Positions 1,614-62,236 of a stretch of 64,000 nt of DNA are shown here, in pieces. This DNA is from a virus: the IMG/VR virus record IMGVR_UViG_3300028030_000009, positions 13,082 through 77,081 of that record; one strand, written 5' to 3'. Position 1 is the stretch's first letter, and every line of letters begins with the position of its first letter. Below the pieces are notes generated by a model. That model was given only the letters and a program-made list of their open reading frames with translations. It did no database searches and was not told the origin of the DNA. Both the position numbers and the translations under genes were made by a program.

Positions 1614-1917
1614 CTACCACTCCACTACACCATCAATATAGACAACAAAACATCGTGAATCCATGATTGCTTGACAATCAAATGGATATCGGTGTACAAT
1701 GACATTGCTACTTTTTATGTCAGGGCCTCACTGCCCTGTCTCTTCTTTTTTACTCCAAAAGAAAGAACTCGCTCCAACATAATTGCAGTCGCAATAATAA
1801 CTTGTTGGGGCTTTCTGTCTCACCCCAATCAAACTTGCTTTTTAATGCTGTACATCTTTATGCTAATCAAAGCAAAATACTGTACAATACGGTATTCTTA
1901 GCAAAAAGGAGTGGCTT

Positions 1918-2799
1918 ATGAGGATACCTGTGTTTTCAACTGGGGATATAACAATCGGCTCAATTGACAAAGAGTGGCTGAAGAATAACAACCCACTCAT
2001 AAAATCATCTACAGGGGAAAGTGGAGCTCGAATTCCAGCTGTCGCTGTTGCGTATAAGCCTGATATCTTATATGATGACGGGGAAATAATTGTTCCAGGT
2101 GATTCGTTCTTCTTGATGTACAGGTTTGACTTGTCGCATTTTAGGGGCGAGAAGGTGCCAATCGAAATTATCCCATATGAGCGTGATTCTGATATGGCAT
2201 GGGTTCTTGTCGAGTATACAAGATGCTTCAAGCATAGGGACAAGGTGCTCTCTGAAATTTTTGACGAAATCGTAGGCTCAAGACCGTTGTTTCTTAGTGA
2301 GTACAGGCGTGTTCGCATAGAAGAGCTTGTAAACACTATGTGGTCAGACACAGAGTCACCATTGTTTAGGAAAATCAGCCTCACTCCCGGAGACGACGGA
2401 GAAATAACATGGTCTGGAGCACACAACTCACTAAGAAAACATCTGTTCTTTGATGCGGCATCCCCGTTCGTGGAAAGATTCACATTTGAGCAGCAGGCCA
2501 AAATCCTTATCTCATCTCTTACTGTCGCCAAAAGCATTAGTGGCTTCAAGGATGTACTCTGTGCACAGCTTGGGTTTGATGCAGTCATGATTGCAATTGA
2601 AGCTGCTCTGCAAAAGGTTCGTGATGTTATGTACTTTGACGAAATATACAACTACACCAAAGAGAGTATTCTTGTTCTTGGGGAAATCGACTGGAAAGAG
2701 AAGGACAGGTATAGAGGAGTATCTGGAAGGTCTACTCTATTTGAAGACATTCGGGAACATAGCGATAGATTTCACGACAAGCACTCTTCACATTCTTGA
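1918..2799 (+). CDS. Hypothetical protein (293 aa)
   Basis: Long ORF with RBS AAGGAG; no motif recognised. Confidence 0.8.
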   Translation: MRIPVFSTGDITIGSIDKEWLKNNNPLIKSSTGESGARIPAVAVAYKPDILYDDGEIIVPGDSFFLMYRFDLSHFRGEKVPIEIIPYERDSDMAWVLVEYTRCFKHRDKVLSEIFDEIVGSRPLFLSEYRRVRIEELVNTMWSDTESPLFRKISLTPGDDGEITWSGAHNSLRKHLFFDAASPFVERFTFEQQAKILISSLTVAKSISGFKDVLCAQLGFDAVMIAIEAALQKVRDVMYFDEIYNYTKESILVLGEIDWKEKDRYRGVSGRSTLFEDIREHSDRFHDKHSSHS

Positions 2800-2807
2800 A
2801 ATAATAG

Positions 2808-2816
2808 TGCTATAAT
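2808..2816 (+). promoter_or_regulatory. Extended -10 promoter TGCTATAAT
   Basis: Perfect TGnTATAAT immediately upstream of the structured RNA. Confidence 0.6.
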
Positions 2817-2822
2817 ACTCCC

Positions 2823-2980
2823 AAGGATGGTGGACGCCCACTAGTGTTCCTATCCCAGCCACTACTCCAATGGCGGTTGAGCTGAAACCTTGACTTATAG
2901 CCTATCGGCTAGGTTAAGGTTCGGTTCAGCCGCTACGGAAAAGCGCCGCCCACCGCTTAGAAAGTGGCTATCGTAGGGGG
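2823..2980 (+). ncRNA. Putative structured ncRNA (multibranch, ~29-bp imperfect hairpin)
   Basis: Hairpin 2871-2935 with ~6 G-U pairs; closing stem AGCCACT 2857-2863/AGTGGCT 2963-2969; small hairpins 2828-2843 and 2941-2958. Confidence 0.6.
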
Positions 2981-2995
2981 TTTGCGTGTTGTACG

Positions 2996-3085
2996 ACCAC
3001 ACCCAAAAACCCCCAAAACCCCAAAACAAAACAACAACACTTCTTCTCAATACTACTATTCCTTTCCTATCTATACTCACTATAT
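2996..3085. repeat. G-free tract; A/C-only over 2996-3040 (C3-5/A4-5 runs)
   Basis: Base composition read directly. Confidence 0.85.
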
Positions 3086-3427
3086 GATTCTTTGGCTGTT
3101 AGTACTCCTTTAATGGGGTTTGGTTTGCTTTGTATGTATATGGGTTGGGGTGGCTCCATATGTCCAGAACACTTAGGCCAGAGCACCTATGTTATACGGA
3201 ACACCAAAAATCGTACTACAACCCGTAGTAAGCGTTTTTTTAGCAAAAATGAGTTTTCTACACCTTGGTGTCAAAAATATGTGTGGGCTTTTGTTGGTTA
3301 TGCTCTGCTATGTTATACCTCTATACCTATTTTGGTCCGGAGCACCTGTCTTTTTCCCTATGATAGGGCACATTGGGCTTTTCTACCAATCAATTCTCGC
3401 TTAGTGTTTGCAAGAAACAATACAGTA

Positions 3428-3689
3428 CTACGGGTTGTAGAAAGTACTTGCGTATTGTTTTTTCTACGGGTTGTAGAACGCTTCTCTTGACAACCTTTTC
3501 TACGGGTTGTAGAAAATACATACAATCCTATCTGCTCTCTTGCAGCAAAGGTGATATCTCAACTTTTTACTACGGGTTGTAGAAAACAAAAATCATACTA
3601 TTGTCTACGGGGTGTAGTAATGGTATAATTGCAATACTGACTACGGGGTGTAGAAAGCTAGCTTTTAAATACTTTACTACGGGTCGTAG
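3428..3689. repeat. Array of 7 palindromic CTAC-GGG(T/G)(T/C)-GTAG repeats with a 35-36 bp period, plus an inverted copy at 3216-3228
   Basis: Copies start at 3428, 3464, 3500, 3570, 3605, 3641 and 3677, with unique 22-23 nt spacers; the skipped slot holds CTGC-N6-GCAG at 3532-3545. Confidence 0.95.
3601..3629 (+). promoter_or_regulatory. Sigma70-like promoter embedded in the repeat array
   Basis: TTGTCT-17 nt-TATAAT with extended TG; overlapped by the repeat at 3605, with two more repeats downstream of the predicted TSS. Confidence 0.6.
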
Positions 3690-3709
3690 AAAAAAATAAG
3701 GATTGAAAA

Positions 3710-3946
3710 ATGGAAGCTCTTGTTGATGTAGATGGTAGAGAGATAAACGTTGGAGACATTGTAGAGGAAGATGGGCATCTCTTTGAGATAGTGTGGCACA
3801 ATGGAGAGTACATGGCTAAGTACTTCTATCCTGATGAGAGTAGAATCGGGAGCCTTGCTGATGTAACTTCAGAAGGTATCTGGCATAATTATGGATTGAA
3901 GGTTGTATCTTCCTGCAACGAAAACATCGATAGGATTCTCAAATGA
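3710..3946 (+). CDS. YopX-like phage protein
   Basis: LVDVDGREINVGDIV...EIVW motif typical of the YopX C-terminal part; RBS AAGGA. Confidence 0.6.
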   Translation: MEALVDVDGREINVGDIVEEDGHLFEIVWHNGEYMAKYFYPDESRIGSLADVTSEGIWHNYGLKVVSSCNENIDRILK

Positions 3947-4587
3947 CATTCTCAGAGTTGAAGAGGAAAGCATATAATGAGGGCATGACTCTTGTTCCGT
4001 TGTATATACTTGTTGAAGATTGGGGCGGGAGGCTATTCGGGAAAGAGCGGCTGTACAGAAAGAAGGATTTGATTGAAGGACCAATCCGTGTTCTGTCTTC
4101 CGATGAGATACGGTACAACTTTGCTTTCCCGAACCCATTGATTGAGCCAGCTACAGTTAAGTACTCACCTACTATTCTCAAAAGACAGATTCTTACATCA
4201 CGCTGCATCATCTTTCCAGGAAGAAAGACGTTCAATGGTGTTGCTTGGTATGCGCAGACTGACAGGAAGATTACAGTTCCACCATTCCACTCTTTTGTTG
4301 TTGACCCGAAAGGAGTTGAGCGCTCTGTGAGACTAATGCTTTGGTTTAACAGGAGAGATGTCATTGATGCAATCAATACAGAAATGCCGAAGAATGGAAT
4401 GACAATATCTTTTATGAGAGAGCTGCCTGTGCCAGTAAATGAAACACCGAACGATGTGGTCGAAGAGTTTGTGGATTTAAACAACAAGAGGATGCAGCTT
4501 CTCTCTGGTGTTGAGATGACATCGTCTAACATAAGAAAGCTTATTGAAAGATACGACAGGGCTGGGGAGGGGAATGCCCCAGCCTGA
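3943..4587 (+). CDS. Putative solitary half type I R-M specificity subunit (HsdS-like: one TRD plus helical region)
   Basis: Spacing of VPLYILVE / GPIRVLSSDEI / QILTSRCIIFPGRKT / VPPFHSFVV / LWFN / ISFMRELPVPV plus a C-terminal amphipathic helix resembles an HsdS half; ATGA-coupled to the upstream gene. Confidence 0.5.
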   Translation: MTFSELKRKAYNEGMTLVPLYILVEDWGGRLFGKERLYRKKDLIEGPIRVLSSDEIRYNFAFPNPLIEPATVKYSPTILKRQILTSRCIIFPGRKTFNGVAWYAQTDRKITVPPFHSFVVDPKGVERSVRLMLWFNRRDVIDAINTEMPKNGMTISFMRELPVPVNETPNDVVEEFVDLNNKRMQLLSGVEMTSSNIRKLIERYDRAGEGNAPA

Positions 4588-4783
4588 AAGGAGGTATGAG
4601 TGGCAAAAAAATCGTGCGACTCCGTACGGACTGCCCGGCACTTACACGCCCTTTTTAGGACGGCGGTTTTTTACCGCAAACGAATAGTAACAAAAAAATT
4701 TACATAGGTCAACATAGGAACACTATAGAACAAAGAGTTGATGTGGTATAATTTTCCAAATAAAAGTTCCACGGAGGATAACG

Positions 4784-4975
4784 ATGAGTCTCATCCTTGT
4801 AGTATGGGCAATCATTACAGTAGCGTTACTGGTTGCAATAAAATCAAGAGACGAAGAGCTTGGAGTGTATGGGGTTATCGCGGTTTGTTTTTGGCCAATG
4901 GCGCTAATAGCATATATCATTCATATTGCAACACATACACTGTTTTTTAAGCAGCAGCACACACCGGCACTATAG
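4784..4975 (+). CDS. Small two-TM membrane protein
   Basis: RBS GGAGG; two hydrophobic segments; TGGTATAAT at 4744-4752. Confidence 0.7.
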   Translation: MSLILVVWAIITVALLVAIKSRDEELGVYGVIAVCFWPMALIAYIIHIATHTLFFKQQHTPAL

Positions 4976-5077
4976 AAGCACTCGAAGCATTATCCCCAGA
5001 AAATGGGAATCTTGTTATGTTTTTAACTTTTTTAGTGTAGAATACTGTCTATAAAATACAACATTAGGACGGGGCAG

Positions 5078-5692
5078 TTGTTTAGCATACAAAATGCGTA
5101 TTCATCAGCGATATCAGCTCTCTATGGGTTAAAGAGAAAAGACCCGTGCCCTTATACTTTCAGACTGTTTGGCCCTGCGCACAACAAAAGAGTTGTATTT
5201 GGCCCAGCTCAGTGGGGAATATCTGTTTCTGAAATAGAAAATAGAATGTGGCTAAAGTCGCATGGGTTTGATATGAACGATATAGACAGGATTGAGAAAA
5301 TATTGATGCTTGGGTCAATAAGGAGCGATGACAAATTATTTTTGTCTTCTATGAACAGGCGACTAAAAGAAAAACAGCTTCCAATAGACCTTGAGACAAA
5401 AAAATGGTGTGGACTTGAACTTAAAAGAATCTCCTCAATACAAGGGCTTGATTTCGCAAAAAGCTCGAACCTCATTGGCGCTCTTACTCTATGGCACAAC
5501 ATAAAATACCGTATCGAAGAAGGCTCACAGTTTCACGATAGATGGGCTTATGTTTCTGGCAAAAAAACAGACGGTGGCGCCAGGTTTGTTGCAGAGTTTT
5601 TGCATTGGAAACTGCAGAGAGAAGTGGCCGACGAGGACATGCAAGATATTGTCAAACGCTATGGTATAATCTTAGACAGAGTAAAATTCTAA
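5078..5692 (+). CDS. Hypothetical protein
   Basis: 204-aa ORF, TTG start with AGGA upstream. Confidence 0.7.
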   Translation: MFSIQNAYSSAISALYGLKRKDPCPYTFRLFGPAHNKRVVFGPAQWGISVSEIENRMWLKSHGFDMNDIDRIEKILMLGSIRSDDKLFLSSMNRRLKEKQLPIDLETKKWCGLELKRISSIQGLDFAKSSNLIGALTLWHNIKYRIEEGSQFHDRWAYVSGKKTDGGARFVAEFLHWKLQREVADEDMQDIVKRYGIILDRVKF

Positions 5693-5706
5693 GCAGTAGG
5701 TAAACC

Positions 5707-6597
5707 ATGGCAACACAACCAGATGAACTATTATCAAAAGGACCTAGGGTCGTCCCCCATGATGCATCAGTAAGAGTTGCGACACAAGACAGTTCAGACC
5801 CAAAAACACTATATGGATTTAACGCCCTTGGGAACATGGCGTTTGGCGCAGGGTCTCTAGTTTCTCCAGTATCAAAAAAGCTTGTTGCTGGCAGAAGGCA
5901 TCCGTCGCTGTATTCCGCTGGACTGAGAACACGGAACCTTGTTCTTGGAGGACTTGCTGGAGCAGCACTATCTACTCCGTTCGACTACCTTCAGTCAAAG
6001 GCTGAAGAAAGATATAGAAATGATAAGGATTTCAACGCAAAGCACTTTGGGGCAATCCTCCTCCCAGCACTTGCAAGCGGTACGCTTGGAACCGGCGTGA
6101 TGATGAATACTATCGACACCATGAAGCTTGGCAATCGTGTTGGGACAAAGAAGATGGTTGCTGGAATCCTTTCTCCGAAAAGAAACATTAAGAGAACACG
6201 TCGTGAAATGGGAAGCATCGCAAGAGCATTTAGGGGTAAAAATATAGGTGGAGCCCTGCTGGGCGCATTGATGTTGGGCTCAAGCCTTATAGGTCCAGCA
6301 CAGTACGCATATAGGACGCTCAGAGGGAAAAAAGACGAAGAGCTTAAAAAAGAGGCGTCTGCTCGAAACACAAATGACATTCTTCGCTCGCTTAGGGCAA
6401 TTAAAAACAAGCTTGGAAAATCAGCGGCAGGCATTGACAAGAAAAAGTTTGACACTGGACTTGGGTACTTTATTCTTGCCAGTGGAGGACTTGCAGCAGG
6501 TGAAAGCTTGCGAAGAAAACTAAGAAAGCAAGAGACGGTTTATCCAGACCAAGCTGTGTCGAAAAGCATGTTTGAGGGCGTAAGAGTATATACATAA
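5707..6597 (+). CDS. Basic, Gly/Ala-zipper-rich probable virion (ejection-type) protein
   Basis: Several GGLAGAAL-type segments; KKEAS motif; TGGTATAAT at 5662-5670. Confidence 0.7.
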   Translation: MATQPDELLSKGPRVVPHDASVRVATQDSSDPKTLYGFNALGNMAFGAGSLVSPVSKKLVAGRRHPSLYSAGLRTRNLVLGGLAGAALSTPFDYLQSKAEERYRNDKDFNAKHFGAILLPALASGTLGTGVMMNTIDTMKLGNRVGTKKMVAGILSPKRNIKRTRREMGSIARAFRGKNIGGALLGALMLGSSLIGPAQYAYRTLRGKKDEELKKEASARNTNDILRSLRAIKNKLGKSAAGIDKKKFDTGLGYFILASGGLAAGESLRRKLRKQETVYPDQAVSKSMFEGVRVYT

Positions 6598-6606
6598 AGG
6601 ACGAAT

Positions 6607-7584
6607 ATGGCTGAAAATATAACTTTTGAGGATTTGAATACTTTTGCAGACGCACTAAAATATGCAGACACATTGCTTCGGACTGCTGAGAGTGGGGTAG
6701 AGCTTTCATATGATTTCATCAGGTCTTATGACTACTATGGAACAGTTAGAATGGCTATCCCAAATGGCACTCCTCTTGAGGCTCCTACAGTCGTATTGAA
6801 GAATTACGATGTGTCAAAATTTTATCAATATACTCCACAGAGCATGTCAAACTTCTTCTATCCGAAGTCTTCTGGAGCAATCCCAGGTGTTGTTGTTGAG
6901 GATGCTTCAGCAGAAACTGATATGTCACTTCTAACAAAGCAGTACATCGAATCAAACTCAATCCTTGTTGACGGACAGTTCTACGCAGACTACTGTTCGT
7001 ATTCAAGCAATGTTGCTGTTGATGAAAACAGCGACGATGCAACAGCTGCAAAACTATCCATCCTTGATACAATGTGCTACAAAGTTAATGAGACGATTCC
7101 TGTTGATTCTGACGACTGGAACGTTTCAATTAAAACATCAATGGCTATGATTTCAAAAGCCAAGGGTTCAAATGTTTTTGTGTTTAGGCTCGCATCAATC
7201 CCAAGCATAAGGGCCAGAAATATTAATGTGGCGTCATCTACGTACACAATTGACTGGCTCACAAACGGCTACATCCAGACAGATGGAATTATTGCGCAGG
7301 ACGCAGAGATAACAGAAGAAGCGTATGAGAGCTCAAACGTGGCAACAATAAAAGCACTATATGACAGCAGTCTGAAGACAGCTGGCTCAACACTTGAGCT
7401 TCACCTTGAAGCCCCAATAGGCATTGCTGCTGCAAAACAAAAAGTTAATGATTTTATGGAGATTTCTGGAGCAAACTGTGTATACGAAGGAGAGGACGCA
7501 TTCCTCACAAGAGAAGAAGGGGTTGAGCTCGCTAAGTATTTGATTAGAAAGTTAGCTGGAATCAAGCTCGGAATCCAGGTGTAA
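6607..7584 (+). CDS. Acidic hypothetical protein, possibly structural
   Basis: 325-aa ORF with RBS AAGGA. Confidence 0.8.
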   Translation: MAENITFEDLNTFADALKYADTLLRTAESGVELSYDFIRSYDYYGTVRMAIPNGTPLEAPTVVLKNYDVSKFYQYTPQSMSNFFYPKSSGAIPGVVVEDASAETDMSLLTKQYIESNSILVDGQFYADYCSYSSNVAVDENSDDATAAKLSILDTMCYKVNETIPVDSDDWNVSIKTSMAMISKAKGSNVFVFRLASIPSIRARNINVASSTYTIDWLTNGYIQTDGIIAQDAEITEEAYESSNVATIKALYDSSLKTAGSTLELHLEAPIGIAAAKQKVNDFMEISGANCVYEGEDAFLTREEGVELAKYLIRKLAGIKLGIQV

Positions 7585-7610
7585 TCTAAAAAAAAATACA
7601 GCCACAAACA

Positions 7611-7627
7611 GCGGGCGAATAGCCCGC
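7611..7627. terminator. Hairpin between convergent transcription units
   Basis: GCGGGC-GAATA-GCCCGC. Confidence 0.6.
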
Positions 7628-7636
7628 GTCAAGACG

Positions 7637-8218
7637 TTACTTTCCGAAAATCTCTTCCAGCAGTTCGTCGATGTCTTTTTTGTCTTTTTTGGCTTGTACA
7701 CCCTTGATGATGTCCACAATAATCTGCATTACAGCACCGGGAATATCATCGCTGTCGTCGTTTTCGACAACCTTTCGCTCTGAGTGCTTTTTGATTTCTT
7801 CGACCTCTTTTACTTTTTCGATGCCCTTTTGAGAAAGCTCCCCAACTCCATAGTACAGAAGAGTCGCATTCTTTGACTTATCAATGAGCTCAATAAACTG
7901 TTTGGCCTCTTCTTCTGTTTCAAAGACGAAAGATTCGGTGTCCTCTTCAAAAAAGTTTACGACTTTGACGATATGATACTGCCGCTCATATTCTTCGTCT
8001 CTGCCGATAGGTTCTCCGTTTGCCTCAACCACTGTGTATTCCTCGGCGTCCTCTTTGTTGCATGCCTTCAGTTCAGATTTGCAAATCTTGATTCCATAGG
8101 GCTTTCCGTCTTCGTTTTCGCCTACACATACATAGTGACTGTCATCAACTTTTGTCACGACAAGCTCTTCCCCGTTTTTTACTTTGAAAATTGTGCCTTT
8201 TTTGAATTCGTTTTTCAT
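7637..8218 (-). CDS. Acidic hypothetical protein
   Basis: ORF with RBS AAGGGG. Confidence 0.8.
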   Translation of the reverse strand: MKNEFKKGTIFKVKNGEELVVTKVDDSHYVCVGENEDGKPYGIKICKSELKACNKEDAEEYTVVEANGEPIGRDEEYERQYHIVKVVNFFEEDTESFVFETEEEAKQFIELIDKSKNATLLYYGVGELSQKGIEKVKEVEEIKKHSERKVVENDDSDDIPGAVMQIIVDIIKGVQAKKDKKDIDELLEEIFGK

Positions 8219-33142: not shown

Positions 33143-34522
33143 TCATTGCTTACCTCCTTCATATTTTACATTCGCAGAAACAAGTGCCTTGGCAACCTGA
33201 GGAACAACACTGTTTCCACACATCCGAACTTGTGCGCTTCTCGTGAGCTTTCTCCCGCGAGGGTTTCCAGTCTTTGAATCATACACATTATCTATCGCAT
33301 ACGAATCAGGGAAACCTTGCGCCCTAAATAGTTCCCTAGGTGTGAACATCCTCATGCACACATCTGTAATAACGTAATCGTCACCATTTACATTTACCAC
33401 TCCGAACCGCTCTTTTGTTGTAACTGTGTGCAATGGAGAATCAACTGGATGGGACGTTCCGTTCCCATAATATTTCATCAGGAATGTTCTAACCTCTCCA
33501 TGATGAGAGCCGCTGCTTGTAATTGTGTGCATTGGCTCATCCATCTTTGAGCCATAGTTGTTGTTTCTCATTTTCACAACATGGCTTAGTACAAGTTGTT
33601 GCTGGCTTCCAGTCCTGGTTACTGTTGACATTGGCGTGTCAACCGCCCTGCCGACATTTCCAAGGTTGTGCTGCGCAACAAACAATGCAGCCTTGTCAAC
33701 ATGCATAGAATTGCATTCAACCGGTGCTACAAATGGCTTATCATTATCAATTACAAATTTTCTTATCCCTGTTGCTATTCTGTGCATTGTCTTCTCTGCG
33801 AGCGGTCGCTTGACACCGTACTGCTTTCCCTCTTCCTTGCTCAGAAAAATTGAGTATGCTGGTGTGTCCCAATCAATGCAGTCAGCAGCAGTTTTCCATG
33901 GAAGTCTATCTGGATATTTTCTTGGGTCTCCATGCGTCGGCTCTGGCCAAACGATTGGCTTTCCATCACATCTGGCCACCATGAATAATCGCTTTCTTGT
34001 AGTTGGCGCGCCATAGTCCGACGCTACGAGCTCTTTCCATTCGACCTTGTACCCTATATGCTCAAGCTCTTTTACAAAAATATTGAACGTCATGCCAGCC
34101 TTGTCTTTGATTGGCATTCCGTTATCGTCAAGAGGCCCCCATGTCTGGAACTCTTCGACGTTTTCAAGGATAATCACATCTGGCCTAACATCGTTAGCCC
34201 ACCTTACTGCAACCCATGCAAGGCTTCTTATATTGCAGTCTAGAGGCTTCCCGCCTTTTGCTTTTGAGAAATGCTTACAATCCGGCGAGAGCCATAGCAA
34301 TGCTACACCATGTCTAACAGCACCGCATACCTTCTTTGGGTCAACGTCAAATACATCCTCTTTGTAGTGAATCGTGTTCCTGTGGTTAGCAGCATGCATA
34401 GCAATTGCTTCATCGTCATGGTTGACCGCAATATCTGGAGACACTCCAAGAGCCCACTCTATCCCAAGGCTTGCGCCACCTCCTCCAGCAAATAGGTCAA
34501 CTATTAATTTACCGTTAAACAC
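33143..34522 (-). CDS. dcm: DNA (cytosine-5)-methyltransferase
   Basis: DLFAGGGG (motif I), SPDC (IV), ENV (VI), RKRLF (VIII), RAQGF, GNSV; repeated PxxTVT TRD units. Confidence 0.96.
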   Translation of the reverse strand: MFNGKLIVDLFAGGGGASLGIEWALGVSPDIAVNHDDEAIAMHAANHRNTIHYKEDVFDVDPKKVCGAVRHGVALLWLSPDCKHFSKAKGGKPLDCNIRSLAWVAVRWANDVRPDVIILENVEEFQTWGPLDDNGMPIKDKAGMTFNIFVKELEHIGYKVEWKELVASDYGAPTTRKRLFMVARCDGKPIVWPEPTHGDPRKYPDRLPWKTAADCIDWDTPAYSIFLSKEEGKQYGVKRPLAEKTMHRIATGIRKFVIDNDKPFVAPVECNSMHVDKAALFVAQHNLGNVGRAVDTPMSTVTRTGSQQQLVLSHVVKMRNNNYGSKMDEPMHTITSSGSHHGEVRTFLMKYYGNGTSHPVDSPLHTVTTKERFGVVNVNGDDYVITDVCMRMFTPRELFRAQGFPDSYAIDNVYDSKTGNPRGRKLTRSAQVRMCGNSVVPQVAKALVSANVKYEGGKQ

Positions 34523-59044: not shown

Positions 59045-59121
59045 GTGGGTATAGCGCAGTCTGGTAGCGCACCTGGTTTGGGACCAGGTGGTCGCAGGTT
59101 CGAATCCTGCTGCCCGCACCA
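59045..59121 (+). tRNA. tRNA-Pro(TGG)
   Basis: Cloverleaf, CCTGG-TTTGGGA-CCAGG, CCA end. Confidence 0.95.
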
Positions 59122-59142
59122 TTCTAACAAAAAAAACACGAA

Positions 59143-59230
59143 AGCAGGTTGGCTGAGTGGTCGAAAGCGGCGGTCTTGAAAACCGTTGAGGGTAACACCT
59201 CCGTGGGTTCGAATCCCACACCTGCTGCCA
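59143..59230 (+). tRNA. tRNA-Ser(TGA)
   Basis: Long variable arm, anticodon loop CTTGAAA, GCCA end. Confidence 0.95.
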
Positions 59231-59248
59231 TTATGGACATAATCAAAG

Positions 59249-59512
59249 ATGATTGACAAAAAAGAAGTCGGCGAACTGATAGCATCATCAATATATGACT
59301 CTGACGATATAGACACAGCTCTTTTTCAACTTGAGACATCAACACCAGAAGAAAGAAAAAGACTAATTCCTGTTGTTGTTGAATTGATTCTTGAAGAAGC
59401 TCTGTTTGGAATACTTTCTGGGATATCAACCAAAGTAACCGATGAAGAGTTTGAAGAAATAAGACAGATGGTGCTTAAGTCTGTCGAGGATTCAATCGGT
59501 AATTTTTCATAG
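59249..59512 (+). CDS. Acidic hypothetical protein between tRNAs
   Basis: ORF track. Confidence 0.65.
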   Translation: MIDKKEVGELIASSIYDSDDIDTALFQLETSTPEERKRLIPVVVELILEEALFGILSGISTKVTDEEFEEIRQMVLKSVEDSIGNFS

Positions 59513-59515
59513 AAT

Positions 59516-59600
59516 GCGGAAGTGGTGGAATTGGTAGACACGCCAGCCTTAGGAGCTGGTGCACTAGTGCGTGAGAGTTCGAGTCTCTCCTTCCGCACCA
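59516..59600 (+). tRNA. tRNA-Leu(TAG)
   Basis: CCAGC-CTTAGGA-GCTGG, variable arm, ACCA end. Confidence 0.95.
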
Positions 59601-59753
59601 TTCATTAAGCGAGAACAAATGGTTGAAACAATAATGGTTTCACTACTGTTTGTGTCATTCCTTGCCGGATACATTGTTGGATGCGCTTCATGCAACAACT
59701 CCTCAAAAGAAAAACACGACGGCAAATACTGCGACACAACACCATACTTTTAG

Positions 59754-59830
59754 GCAGCCGTAGTTCAGATGGTTAGAACGCCTGCCTGTCACGCAGGAGG
59801 CCGTGGGTTCGAGTCCCATCGGCTGCGCCA
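59754..59830 (+). tRNA. tRNA-Asp(GTC)
   Basis: CCTGC-CTGTCAC-GCAGG, GCCA end. Confidence 0.95.
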
Positions 59831-59983
59831 TATAAAAAAGATAGAAGGAAATACAGATGGAATTCAATACTATGCTTTTGATGGTTAACATTGCTGGACT
59901 CCTCCTATTCTACGACACAAATTCAGATAATTGCTAATTTTTTAAGTATCACGTAAAGTTCTGTTTGGTATAGTTCAAGTTAT

Positions 59984-60060
59984 GCGCCCGTAGCTCAGCA
60001 GGATAGAGCATTCGCCTTCTAAGCGAACGGTCCCAAGTTCGAATCTTGGCGGGCGTACCA
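59984..60060 (+). tRNA. tRNA-Arg(TCT)
   Basis: TTCGC-CTTCTAA-GCGAA, ACCA end. Confidence 0.95.
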
Positions 60061-60061
60061 T

Positions 60062-60138
60062 GCCGGTGTAGCTCAGTTGGCCAGAGCAGCTGATTTGTAA
60101 TCAGCAGGTCGTCAGTTCGAATCTGACCATCGGCTCCA
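60062..60138 (+). tRNA. tRNA-Thr(TGT)
   Basis: GCTGA-TTTGTAA-TCAGC, CCA end. Confidence 0.95.
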
Positions 60139-60356
60139 TCTCAAAAAAGTCGTACAATACGCCAAAACCCCTTGCAAAACAAAAAAATATTCGCTACAAT
60201 TCAAACTGTCAGAGATGACATCGCTTTATGTCTTCCTATCATTTTATACTGATAGGCCACATATTGCGAGGCTACGAGGGGGAGAGCCGTTCTGGAGATA
60301 AGCGCCCAGAATCCGCCATGCTCATGGAGGCCCGCCTCAACAGCCGAATAATAAGC

Positions 60357-60431
60357 TGGGGTGTCGCCAAGCGGTAAGGCCGCAGGTTTTGGTCCTGCTA
60401 TTCGGGGGTTCGAGTCCCTCCACCCCATCCA
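60357..60431 (+). tRNA. tRNA-Gln(TTG)
   Basis: U1-A72, GCAGG-TTTTGGT-CCTGC, CCA end. Confidence 0.93.
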
Positions 60432-60432
60432 T

Positions 60433-60508
60433 TCCGGTGTAGCTCAGCTGGTAGAGCGAGCGGCTGTTAACCGCTATGTCGCAGGTTCGAGTCCTGCCAC
60501 CGGAGCCA
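60433..60508 (+). tRNA. tRNA-Asn(GTT)
   Basis: AGCGG-CTGTTAA-CCGCT, GCCA end. Confidence 0.95.
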
Positions 60509-60533
60509 CAAATACTTCAAAAAAGGGGAAATC

Positions 60534-60728
60534 ATGAAAAAAAAGTTCAAATCTCTGTGGAAAATTGATATTAGCTATGATGACGATAGTGGAGATACGG
60601 CATCAGCAACATTTATGGTAGTGGCGAGAACAATCGATAAGGCAATCAGCATTGCTAGGAAGAATTTTGGAAATGTGGATGTGGAGATTGTTTCCGTAGA
60701 AAAAACAAACTGCAACCTTTTGTACTGA
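60534..60728 (+). CDS. Small protein (VVARTIDKAI, DpnD-like)
   Basis: RBS AAGGGG. Confidence 0.65.
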   Translation: MKKKFKSLWKIDISYDDDSGDTASATFMVVARTIDKAISIARKNFGNVDVEIVSVEKTNCNLLY

Positions 60729-60736
60729 GCATAGAC

Positions 60737-60997
60737 ATGGAAAATTGCGAAATTGAGCAAGCAATTTTTAGGGAGATAGAAAAAGAGGTTGTCCGCATAA
60801 TCAGAGAGAAGCATATGGACTACATTGAGAAGGTAGTTGACGATAACATTGAGTATATCGTTGATGAGTTCTTTAGGAGTGCAAGAGAATACGGTCATGA
60901 GCAGATAGACGAGGTAATCGTTGACGCCATGAGAGAAAAAGTCAGCCAATATATGAAAGATGTTGAGCTGACAAAAAAATCAAGCAAGGTGAAGTGA
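60737..60997 (+). CDS. Hypothetical helical protein
   Basis: ORF track. Confidence 0.65.
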   Translation: MENCEIEQAIFREIEKEVVRIIREKHMDYIEKVVDDNIEYIVDEFFRSAREYGHEQIDEVIVDAMREKVSQYMKDVELTKKSSKVK

Positions 60998-61269
60998 TGA
61001 GATATATCGTTGCTGAAAAAATCCCAACAGAGGTTAAGATGCTCAGCGTAACAAAAAAGGAGCTTGAGGATATGCGAAACAAGTTTAGGTGCATATCCGT
61101 TTCCTTGCAAGACGAAAAGTGGCTGGCATCAGAAGAAGACGATGCACACGTTGGCTATCTTGCCGGAGAAATAGGAAGAATGCACCAAGACCAATATGCT
61201 GATGTTTGGTTTGTAAACAAAAACTATTTCAACAAAAACTATAGAATTGTAAAGGAGGAAGAAAAATGA
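60994..61269 (+). CDS. Hypothetical protein (DVWFVNKNYFNKNY)
   Basis: Coupled to the DUF2829 gene. Confidence 0.7.
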   Translation: MMRYIVAEKIPTEVKMLSVTKKELEDMRNKFRCISVSLQDEKWLASEEDDAHVGYLAGEIGRMHQDQYADVWFVNKNYFNKNYRIVKEEEK

Positions 61270-61556
61270 GTGCAGGAACTTTTGTAGGAGAAGGGTCTTT
61301 CGGATGGGCTCTCAAAATGCTTGAAAACGGCGAGAAGGTAGCAAGAGATGGGTGGAACGGGAAAGATATGTTTCTGTTTCTTGTTCCAGGTAGCAAATTT
61401 AAGGTAAACCGTCCACCGCTTCTAGGAATCTATCCAGAAGGAACGGAGATTGAGTATCATGCTCATATCGACATGAAGACAGCGCAAGGATATGTTGTTC
61501 CGTGGCTAGCGTCACAAGCAGATATTCTAGCAAAAGACTGGAAGGTGGTTAAGTAA
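61266..61556 (+). CDS. DUF2829 / Thoeris anti-defence Tad2-like protein
   Basis: FGWALKMLENGEKVARDGWNGKDMFLFLV...PWLASQADILAKDW. Confidence 0.85.
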   Translation: MSAGTFVGEGSFGWALKMLENGEKVARDGWNGKDMFLFLVPGSKFKVNRPPLLGIYPEGTEIEYHAHIDMKTAQGYVVPWLASQADILAKDWKVVK

Positions 61557-61777
61557 TGCACGGCATGTTCATGTTTGACATGAGCAGGTGTCATGGCATT
61601 GGGTGCGACAAATCAACAGAATGTGCACGCTATCTTGCTGTTGAGTTTGACAAAAAACACAAAGATGAGCTTCCAAATTATATGTCATACATCCAAGAAG
61701 CAAGCTGCATTCGAAACGGGTTCTCAGGTTTTGTAAAAGCAACAAAGCAAGAAAAAAAACTTGCTATGCAAGGATAA
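61556..61777 (+). CDS. Small Cys-rich protein, paralog of 29602-29793
   Basis: CHGIGCDKSTECARY...CIRNG. Confidence 0.7.
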   Translation: MHGMFMFDMSRCHGIGCDKSTECARYLAVEFDKKHKDELPNYMSYIQEASCIRNGFSGFVKATKQEKKLAMQG

Positions 61778-61815
61778 AAAAGCTTTGTATAAGGTACAAT
61801 TTTGTACCATTCTTT

Positions 61816-61883
61816 CTGCCAGTCGTCTAGCGGCCAAGGACACCTCAAACGAGGAAACGCATGTTCAAATCATGCCTGGCAAA
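61816..61883 (+). ncRNA. tRNA-Glu-like element with a truncated anticodon arm
   Basis: TGCCAG/CTGGCA acceptor, GTCTAGCGGCCAAGGAC D-arm, CCTC-AAAC-GAGG, GCATG-TTCAAAT-CATGC T-arm; no CCA. Confidence 0.65.
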
Positions 61884-61957
61884 ATCAGGGAAAGATTAGG
61901 CAGCAGGTGTTTCTAGAGCACCTATACAGCTGAACAGGTTCAACCCCTGCCTGATTA
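61883..61957 (+). ncRNA. Degenerate tRNA-like element with a CUA anticodon-type loop
   Basis: AATCAGG/CCTGATT stem; AGGTGT-TTCTAGA-GCACCT; CAGG-TTCAACC-CCTG; poor D-arm. Confidence 0.5.
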
Positions 61958-62077
61958 AAACTCCTGCAGAAGTGCAGGTCGCTCAAGGCAAGTCTAATAG
62001 GCGCTTGAGCCTTGAGAGTAGCACCGCTGCCTCTGTCTACCGAGCAATGAGCTCAGGTAGTCACGCACGGAATATTC

Positions 62078-62155
62078 GGGCACTTAGCTCAGTTGGTAGA
62101 GCTCCCCGCTCATAACGGGGCGGTCGGTTGGGTTCGAGTCCCCCAGTGCCCACCA
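62078..62155 (+). tRNA. tRNA-CAT (Ile2 or elongator Met); 2-nt bulge in the T-stem
   Basis: CCCCG-CTCATAA-CGGGG, ACCA end. Confidence 0.88.
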
Positions 62156-62160
62156 TATAT

Positions 62161-62236
62161 GGGGTTGTAGCTCAGTTGGGAGAGCGCTTGCCTTGCACGC
62201 ACGAGGTCACGGGTTCGAGCCCCGTCAACTCCACCA
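62161..62236 (+). tRNA. tRNA-Ala(TGC)
   Basis: G3:U70, loop CTTGCAC, ACCA end; one mismatch in the anticodon stem. Confidence 0.93.

Follow-up and report, generated by a model that had tools for sequence, protein, structure and literature searches.

A regularly spaced palindrome array at the promoter of a vent phage operon encoding a lone half-HsdS-like protein, a possible repressor of its own operon

Lone proteins that resemble one half of HsdS, the specificity subunit of type I restriction-modification (R-M) systems, are common in annotation and their function is not known. The sole solved example is the 23-kDa Esub1 (SpyM3_0890) of Streptococcus pyogenes (PDB 8VSQ/8VSR; Muna et al., NAR 2024, PMC11754733), which is a homodimer in the crystal and in solution, joined through its C-terminal helices, and which therefore has two identical heads of the target-recognition domain (TRD) type. 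Esub1 did not convincingly bind HsdM and its gene lies away from type I R-M genes; its authors concluded that it is probably no S subunit and that its configuration is characteristic of a transcription factor or repressor, with no known DNA target (PMC11754733). A small acidic phage protein, Prx, plugs the DNA cleft of Esub1 (PMC11754733). Esub1 also has an insertion helix with the motif Rx(hydrophobic)xR. Here we analyse a stretch of 64,000 nucleotides of viral DNA (the window, to which all positions refer), bases 13082-77081 of the 77,081-bp IMG/VR virus record IMGVR_UViG_3300028030_000009, in which a lone protein of this kind, encoded by the open reading frame (ORF) that we call ORF214, is paired with a statistically unambiguous candidate target, an array of CTAC-N5-GTAG palindromes on the promoter of its own operon.

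Half-size HsdS subunits also dimerise and read symmetric bipartite sites, GAA(N7)TTC for truncated EcoR124I (PMC12707154) and TCA(N8)TGA for truncated EcoDXXI, and among the type I families 6-9 bp lie between the target adenines (PMC12707154, Table 1). In CTAC(N5)GTAG there are 7 bp between the candidate target adenines, inside the type I range, as an earlier note on this DNA had correctly reckoned. We give this agreement little weight, because a 13-bp palindrome suits dimeric binders of every kind.

The array is real, and chance falls far short of explaining it. The pattern CTACNNNNNGTAG (CTAC-N5-GTAG) occurs eight times in the window against 0.28 expected, a count reached by none of 100 shuffles, and all eight sites lie within 3216-3689, starting at 3216, 3428, 3464, 3500, 3570, 3605, 3641 and 3677. 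The stricter pattern CTACGGGNNGTAG has no copy outside the array region in the whole record, and the 19-mer TTTCTACGGGTTGTAGAAA, allowing up to three mismatches, was found at exactly the same eight places (0.01 expected). When aligned, the copies give a consensus of about 19 bp, TTT(T/A)CTACGGG(T/G)(T/C)GTAGAAA, in which the arms never vary, the central GGG is invariant in 8/8 copies and, within the centre, variation is limited to the last two positions. Seven copies run in one direction at start-to-start distances of 36, 36, 70, 35, 36 and 36 bp, with one slot left empty, and the conserved unit of 13-19 bp alternates with unique spacers of 17-23 bp that have no common sequence. The earlier note had listed these seven copies, the eighth, inverted copy at 3216 and the unique spacers, and our pattern count found them all, although the note had understated the conserved centre GGG(T/G)(T/C) and the common orientation.

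The seven direct copies form two clusters on the + strand. The first (3425-3515) holds three repeats with cores at 3428-3440, 3464-3476 and 3500-3512, all CTACGGGTTGTAG and 36 bp apart, with a TTGACA at 3487-3492 between the second and the third. The second cluster (3567-3692) holds four repeats, 35-36 bp apart, whose cores differ in their centres: GGGTT at 3570-3582, GGGGT at 3605-3617 and 3641-3653, and GGGTC at 3677-3689. In the skipped slot a CTGC-N6-GCAG palindrome, CTGCTCTCTTGCAG, is indeed present at 3532-3545, with both arms changed and an N6 centre; it had been taken for a variant of the repeat, but it lies 4 bp out of register and has a different loop. We estimate roughly, after the fact, that chance would produce it with a probability of about 0.04, and we regard any kinship with the repeats as uncertain. 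The inverted copy (3213-3231, - strand) has the core CTACAACCCGTAG at 3216-3228, an exact reverse complement.

The array straddles a credible promoter. A -35-like TTGTCT (3601-3606) and an extended -10, TGGTATAAT (3621-3629), are separated by 17 bp on the + strand, and the promoter TTGTCT-17-TATAAT that had been placed at 3601-3629 inside the array was thus recovered by our scan, with 10/12 matches and a TG ahead of the -10. Ten copies of the extended -10 word TGNTATAAT are present in the window (671, 2808, 3621, 4744, 5662, 16789, 22672, 46452, 46868 and 49665) against 2.4 expected, an approximately fourfold enrichment, with 0/100 shuffles reaching ten, and most copies, including those at 2808, 3621, 4744 and 5662, lie just 5' of an ORF on the same strand. 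This distribution suggests extended -10-dependent promoters of the host sigma-70 type. Because the word is enriched and lies mostly upstream of same-strand ORFs, it is very probably the usual host-type promoter of the phage, which makes the copy in the array credible. Transcription would start near 3636, and relative to this presumed start the repeats begin at about -208, -172, -136, -66, -31, +6 and +42, those of the second cluster spanning about -66/-54, -31/-19, +6/+18 and +42/+54. Sites therefore flank and overlap the promoter and would reach into the early transcribed region.

The promoter is followed by two genes on the + strand, as the earlier note had it: ORF78 (3710-3946, 78 aa), whose ATG is at +75 and which has an AAGGA ribosome-binding site about 8 nt upstream, and ORF214 (3943-4587, 214 aa), whose start overlaps the ORF78 stop by ATGA, so that the two are translationally coupled. 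We regard array, promoter, ORF78 and ORF214 as one compact unit because of the ATGA overlap, the AAGGA site and the position of the next extended -10 motif, which comes only at 4744. Directly 3' of ORF214 there is also a 20-codon ORF, MSGKKIVRLRTDCPALTRPF (4597-4659), with a near-perfect Shine-Dalgarno sequence, AAAGGAGG, 4 nt 5' of its ATG; it lies within a long imperfect hairpin, which may also end the operon.

ORF214 encodes a basic protein (isoelectric point, pI, 9.4). An AlphaFold2 model built on a five-sequence alignment had a predicted local distance difference test (pLDDT) score of 86.7 and a predicted template-modelling score of 0.80, and the single sequence gave a pLDDT of 31. The model, which is of a monomer, starts with a short helix at the N terminus, continues into a mixed alpha/beta head and ends in a C-terminal helix of 41 residues (170-210). 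The Foldseek check of 3943-4587 against the PDB gave Esub1 as the best match (8VSQ/8VSR, E 1.3e-6), with HsdS and type IIB/IIG specificity domains next in rank. When the model was aligned exhaustively to 48,161 representative PDB chains, the outcome was entirely consistent with this, all of the top 17 matches being R-M target-recognition domains: Esub1 chain 8VSQ_A scored Z 13.7 (root-mean-square deviation 5.0 A, 187/196 residues aligned), the S subunit of PacII 12.7, that of BsaXI 11.1, CamA 10.8 and EcoKI HsdS 10.7, while no unrelated chain rose above Z 2.3. The ESM Atlas, in which ORF214 matched Methylase_S clusters with a feature score of 0.96 and a template-modelling (TM) score of 0.65, is in independent agreement. 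The claim that the protein is half-HsdS-like thus holds at the level of the modelled fold, and on this model ORF214 is, like Esub1, a genuine lone TRD protein. An HsdS chain has two TRDs and two conserved helical regions, and ORF214 has one head and one helix.

By sequence the protein stands almost by itself. No match to ORF214 was found in Pfam, PHROG, NCBIfam, PADLOC or the PDB, neither phmmer nor hmmsearch connected it to the S-like chains of the PDB, and the Methylase_S profile PF01420 matched nothing in the 77-kb record. Only four relatives were present among 1.8 billion representative proteins, one of them 53% identical (P0002) and the other three clusters at 21-29% identity (E 4.7e-6 to 7.6e-4). 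P0002 comes from an ENA contig of 1,229 bp, P0009 from a JGI contig of 19.8 kb and P0010 from an ENA contig of 2.9 kb. All full-length members of the family have 207-219 aa, and most are basic like ORF214 (pI about 8.2-9.9), with the exception of P0008 (pI 6.0); our search found no longer fused forms, which is weak evidence, and the alignment of five sequences is too divergent for pattern scans. P0008, which is tied to ORF214 through the cluster representative P0003 (phmmer E 4.7e-6) and so by a transitive link, matches the PADLOC model 'Specificity_I' across head and helix (E 1.2e-5). Because of this match to a type I specificity model, common descent of ORF214 and HsdS, beyond a shared fold, is likely. 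Searches for ORF214 and the relatives P0005, P0008, P0009 and P0010 in IMG/VR, JGI metagenome contigs, GTDB genomes and INPHARED phages were negative, apart from a single marginal match of P0008 in the last of these (Escherichia phage EJP2, E 0.02 over 47% of the query).

The first gene of the operon encodes a small acidic protein (pI 4.4; 16 D/E versus 6 K/R). It had been called YopX-like, and a resemblance is there (ESM Atlas TM 0.71 and features 0.89 against YopX clusters; phrog_98 at E 0.043), although we take it as a lead only. A whole-sequence phmmer search of the PDB also returned WD40 and designed propeller proteins, with E-values down to 1.8e-11 and no single stretch passing alone; these matches probably reflect a blade-like beta motif or composition, not homology. 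We can only speculate, by analogy with Prx and Esub1, that ORF78 might be a partner or antagonist of ORF214.

Taken together, the repeats are probably protein-binding sites on DNA, given their strict period, their invariant arms, the weak and unequal hairpins that they form as RNA (-2.5 to -6.8 kcal/mol) and their position over a credible promoter. Such weak, uneven hairpins with constant arms suit a readout of sequence better than a readout of structure. Our favoured explanation, which we hold tentatively, is that ORF214 is a dimeric repressor of its own operon and acts through these repeats. The repeats would be operators over and around the host-type promoter of ORF78-ORF214, and the operon's own basic TRD product would be their most likely reader. 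By analogy with Esub1, an ORF214 homodimer would present two identical heads for reading DNA, separated by about one helical turn, and each head would read one arm of TTTCTAC...GTAGAAA. With the sites at about -31/-19, +6/+18 and +42/+54 filled, RNA polymerase would be blocked and the operon would repress itself, and perhaps the upstream sites and the distal inverted site add strength through cooperative or looped binding. With ORF214 as the reader and autorepression as the function, this is the most economical account of the locus.

Several observations weigh against it. What connects ORF214 with the array is adjacency alone, and a 4-N5-4 palindrome suits a helix-turn-helix, a ribbon-helix-helix or another dimeric protein equally well, while 59% of the genome is unseen. 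When aligned by structure, ORF214 and Esub1 are only about 11% identical, no match between them was detectable by sequence, and ORF214 fails the Pfam Methylase_S model (PF01420), nothing in Pfam matching it even at E-values up to 10. A symmetric dimer that ignores the spacer does not predict the conserved asymmetric centre GGG(T/G)(T/C), nor would a symmetric reader account for the single orientation of the seven array copies (P about 0.016 under that null). The period of 36 bp corresponds to 3.4 helical turns, and neighbouring sites therefore lie on different faces of the helix. Finally, repeats 1-3 are 120-210 bp upstream of the promoter, farther than simple occlusion requires.

Some of these same observations fit a different reader. 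The repeats may be operator or iteron sites for another dimeric DNA-binding protein, either a phage regulator encoded in the unseen 59% or a host factor, with ORF214 as only one of the genes under its control; this is a possibility that we consider doubtful. The sites have a geometry common to dimeric regulators in general, no more than 41% of the genome is covered by the record, and a conserved asymmetric centre agrees with a reader that touches all 19 bp. A parallel was found when we searched IMG/VR for similar arrays. The two-unit CTACGGGNNGTAG search gave nothing, and a looser three-unit CTACN5GTAG search gave nine contigs, eight of which were unrelated coding tandem repeats. The ninth (L011; IMGVR_UViG_3300004249_000023, 7799-7898) is an unrelated GC-rich phage contig with four CTACA-N3-TGTAG palindromes at a 34-bp period, the last of them 19 bp away, directly 5' of a small ORF. 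Judged from its sequence, this ORF reads like a Cro/CI-type regulator, and the palindromes appear to be an analogous, unrelated operator array, which would place such an array in front of a small regulator gene. On the other hand, Pfam and PHROGs showed no DNA-binding domain in the ORFs neighbouring our array, and ORF214 is the only nearby protein with a DNA-recognition fold.

An RNA-level mechanism has to be weighed together with the region upstream of the array. A promoter-like site on the + strand, TTCACA-18-TATAAT with a TG (2787-2816; 11/12 scan matches), would open a unit that runs to 3240, outside the array. Downstream of this site the sequence is strongly structured (minimum free energy -137 kcal/mol, z -4.2); a long hairpin spans about 2857-2970, a hairpin of GGGGG...CCCCC spans about 2977-3015 and there is a C/A-rich tract, and we predict from it a candidate non-coding RNA of about 415 nt that has no Rfam match. 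The stretch ends with the inverted copy of the repeat, after whose hairpin (-5.2 kcal/mol) the + strand reads AGCG and then seven consecutive T (3234-3240), and which could also serve as a terminator for the upstream transcript. This non-coding region also contains two exact copies of CCRGAGCACCTRT (3178-3190 and 3337-3349), which stand 159 bp apart on either side of the inverted repeat, with a degenerate third copy just upstream near 3164; they may be a second kind of candidate binding site.

Phage antisense immunity RNAs such as the CI RNA of P4 and the C4 RNA of P1 provide a model for what such a transcript could do. The array repeats would form weak GGGUU-loop hairpins in a leader or 5' untranslated region, to be bound by an RNA-binding protein or targeted by an 'anti-repeat' RNA carrying the 3216 copy. 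This would explain why the loop is conserved, why the orientation is uniform and where the single inverted copy is placed; that copy lies downstream of a strong promoter and the structured stretch, ahead of the T-run, and is complementary to the repeats over 16 nt perfectly and over 23 nt at 87%; the element in the skipped slot, which changes both arms and yet keeps pairing, points the same way. However, the hairpins are marginal, with an invariant stem of 4 bp, and the eight true copies show no compensatory variation. Each of the loop variants, GGGGU and GGGUC, would form a mismatch with the AACCC loop and not a wobble pair, five of the seven repeats precede the only good promoter, RNA pairing has no need for a strict 35-36-bp period, and Rfam gave no match. 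We therefore think a mechanism at the RNA level rather unlikely.

Regular sites in front of a small operon are also known from centromeres and origins, such as parC/ParR, the omega heptads of pSM19035 and the iterons of the lambda origin. The array could be a centromere-like or origin-like set of iterons for a partition complex or for the initiation of replication, and at the same time the operator of the operon. Its seven to eight regular sites, arranged 3+4 around a gap, would agree with this, the non-integral helical phasing would give a superhelical protein coat, and the phage is large, with an estimated genome of about 190 kb. Nevertheless we consider it improbable. Neither ORF78 nor ORF214 nor their neighbours showed a Walker, actin-like or tubulin-like nucleoside triphosphatase (NTPase) of the ParA, ParM or TubZ type in Pfam, PHROG, NCBIfam or PADLOC; the replication genes (DnaB, DnaG and an HTH_36 protein) are 36-48 kb away, the GC skew merely tracks gene orientation and there is no marked AT-rich unwinding element.

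The earlier note had proposed that the phage hijacks host HsdM/HsdR or carries a decoy array against restriction, and such restriction-hijack ideas are unlikely. They suppose that an ORF214 dimer is a true specificity subunit which recruits host HsdM, with or without HsdR, to methylate with, retarget or titrate a host type I system, the array being a methylation switch, decoy or sink and ORF78 a modulator. The half-S architecture of ORF214 is in keeping with this, as are the 7 bp between the candidate adenines, the same as in EcoR124I and its truncated GAA(N7)TTC form (PMC12707154), and the orphan HsdS of Lactococcus plasmids that use chromosomal HsdM/HsdR, in work that PMC11318856 cites. Beyond the fold, the proposal found no support. 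No hsdM, hsdR or adenine methylase gene was found in the 77-kb record, which is 41% complete, and the profiles N6_Mtase, Eco57I, N6_N4_Mtase and Methylase_S had no match there, so the absence of hsdM and hsdR from the window that had been reported extends to the whole record; an hsdM partner may be encoded elsewhere, in the unseen genome or in the host. ORF214 has no detectable similarity to the conserved regions of Methylase_S, the closest structure, Esub1, did not convincingly bind HsdM (PMC11754733), and a conserved spacer and a fixed site orientation are foreign to type I recognition. The array would moreover protect or retarget nothing else, because the motif is confined to one intergenic region. 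We give these ideas very little credence, and the earlier interpretation as a whole is partly supported.

Some other known kinds of element were considered for the repeats and rejected. A CRISPR (clustered regularly interspaced short palindromic repeats) or mini-CRISPR array does not fit, the conserved unit of 13-19 bp being too short beside repeats of about 23-50 bp with spacers of similar size, which cas genes or a leader usually accompany, and no Rfam family, CRISPR repeats included, matched in 2500-5200. The array copies are not intrinsic terminators, as an A-run and not a T-run follows them, nor are they attachment or arm-type recombination sites, being palindromic and regularly spaced. 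In an informal comparison with LexA, NrdR and CodY boxes, none fitted.

The phage itself is large and divergent. CheckV puts the completeness of the record at 41%, from which the estimated genome size follows (77 kb at 41%), and the genes in the window include DnaB, DnaG, a class I ribonucleotide reductase and a C5 cytosine methylase. In the whole record no DNA methylase was detected other than the last of these (33143-34522; Pfam DNA_methylase, E 3.9e-34). The + strand also carries, at 59045-62236, a cluster of ten tRNA genes (Pro, Ser, Leu, Asp, Arg, Thr, Gln, Asn, Met and Ala), which is consistent with a large phage. The DNA probably came from a hydrothermal-vent metagenome, in a sequencing run of which the region 1800-7700 is contained. 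A run from a second study (2025) gave an 80-kb contig that is 95% identical over 1800-7700, with 291 substitutions and three indels, and in this strain the array is without any indel, which is in keeping with our favoured explanation; a third sequencing run gave fragments of 1800-7700, some of them below 90% identity. No close relative was found among isolate phages or in IMG/VR, the stretch 2800-4800 had no DNA match in the phage collection, the neighbouring gene at 6607-7584 and the DnaB gene had no relatives in IMG/VR, and the best DnaB matches in isolate phages were about 33% identical. This is an uncultured, deeply divergent vent phage.

If ORF214 does read the array, an R-M specificity module has been reused as a stand-alone gene regulator, which would bring a further DNA-binding fold to the phage repressors and offer a model system for TRD-DNA recognition without a methylase. 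Otherwise the array would keep its interest as the sign of an unusual regulatory or RNA element in this deeply divergent phage.

How the locus compares with described systems can now be set out, starting with those that share its parts. Ronin (ronA-hsdS-hsdM), a decoy system of E. coli ECOR55 (bioRxiv 10.1101/2023.04.06.535777), likewise uses R-M specificity and methylase parts beyond restriction and has a small partner gene. It always includes hsdM and a 61-aa membrane toxin, however, and serves host defence, whereas the ORF214 locus has no hsdM and a soluble acidic partner and belongs to a phage. HsdS itself shares with ORF214 the TRD fold and a long coiled-coil helix (Z 9-13 for the S subunits of PacII, EcoKI, M. 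jannaschii and EcoR124I). It differs in that it works with hsdM and hsdR, neither of which is in the record, in that its spacer is not read whereas the repeats beside ORF214 have a conserved centre, and in that its targets are scattered over genomes whereas the CTAC-N5-GTAG sites are arrayed on one promoter.

Arrays of operators or iterons that autoregulate small operons, among them lambda-type operators, parC/ParR and the omega system of pSM19035, are close to the locus in layout: short, regularly spaced sites over the promoter of the presumed binder's own operon, as a proximal cluster with a distal site. Their binders are helix-turn-helix or ribbon-helix-helix proteins, whereas the presumed binder here has a TRD fold, and the 36-bp period of our locus is not helically phased and comes without an NTPase partner. 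The closest match to the protein is Esub1, which like ORF214 has a single TRD head and a C-terminal helix in about 200 aa, with no R-M genes nearby. Esub1 is the product of a host gene and ORF214 of a phage gene; no array has been described for Esub1, whereas ORF214 has one at its own promoter; and ORF78 is YopX-like and no relative of Prx. By analogy, Esub1 offers a precedent both for DNA binding by a dimer of lone TRD proteins and for a small acidic modulator. Seen against both, the locus would be an operator array with an unusual presumed reader, and that ORF214 reads the array is our best single hypothesis.

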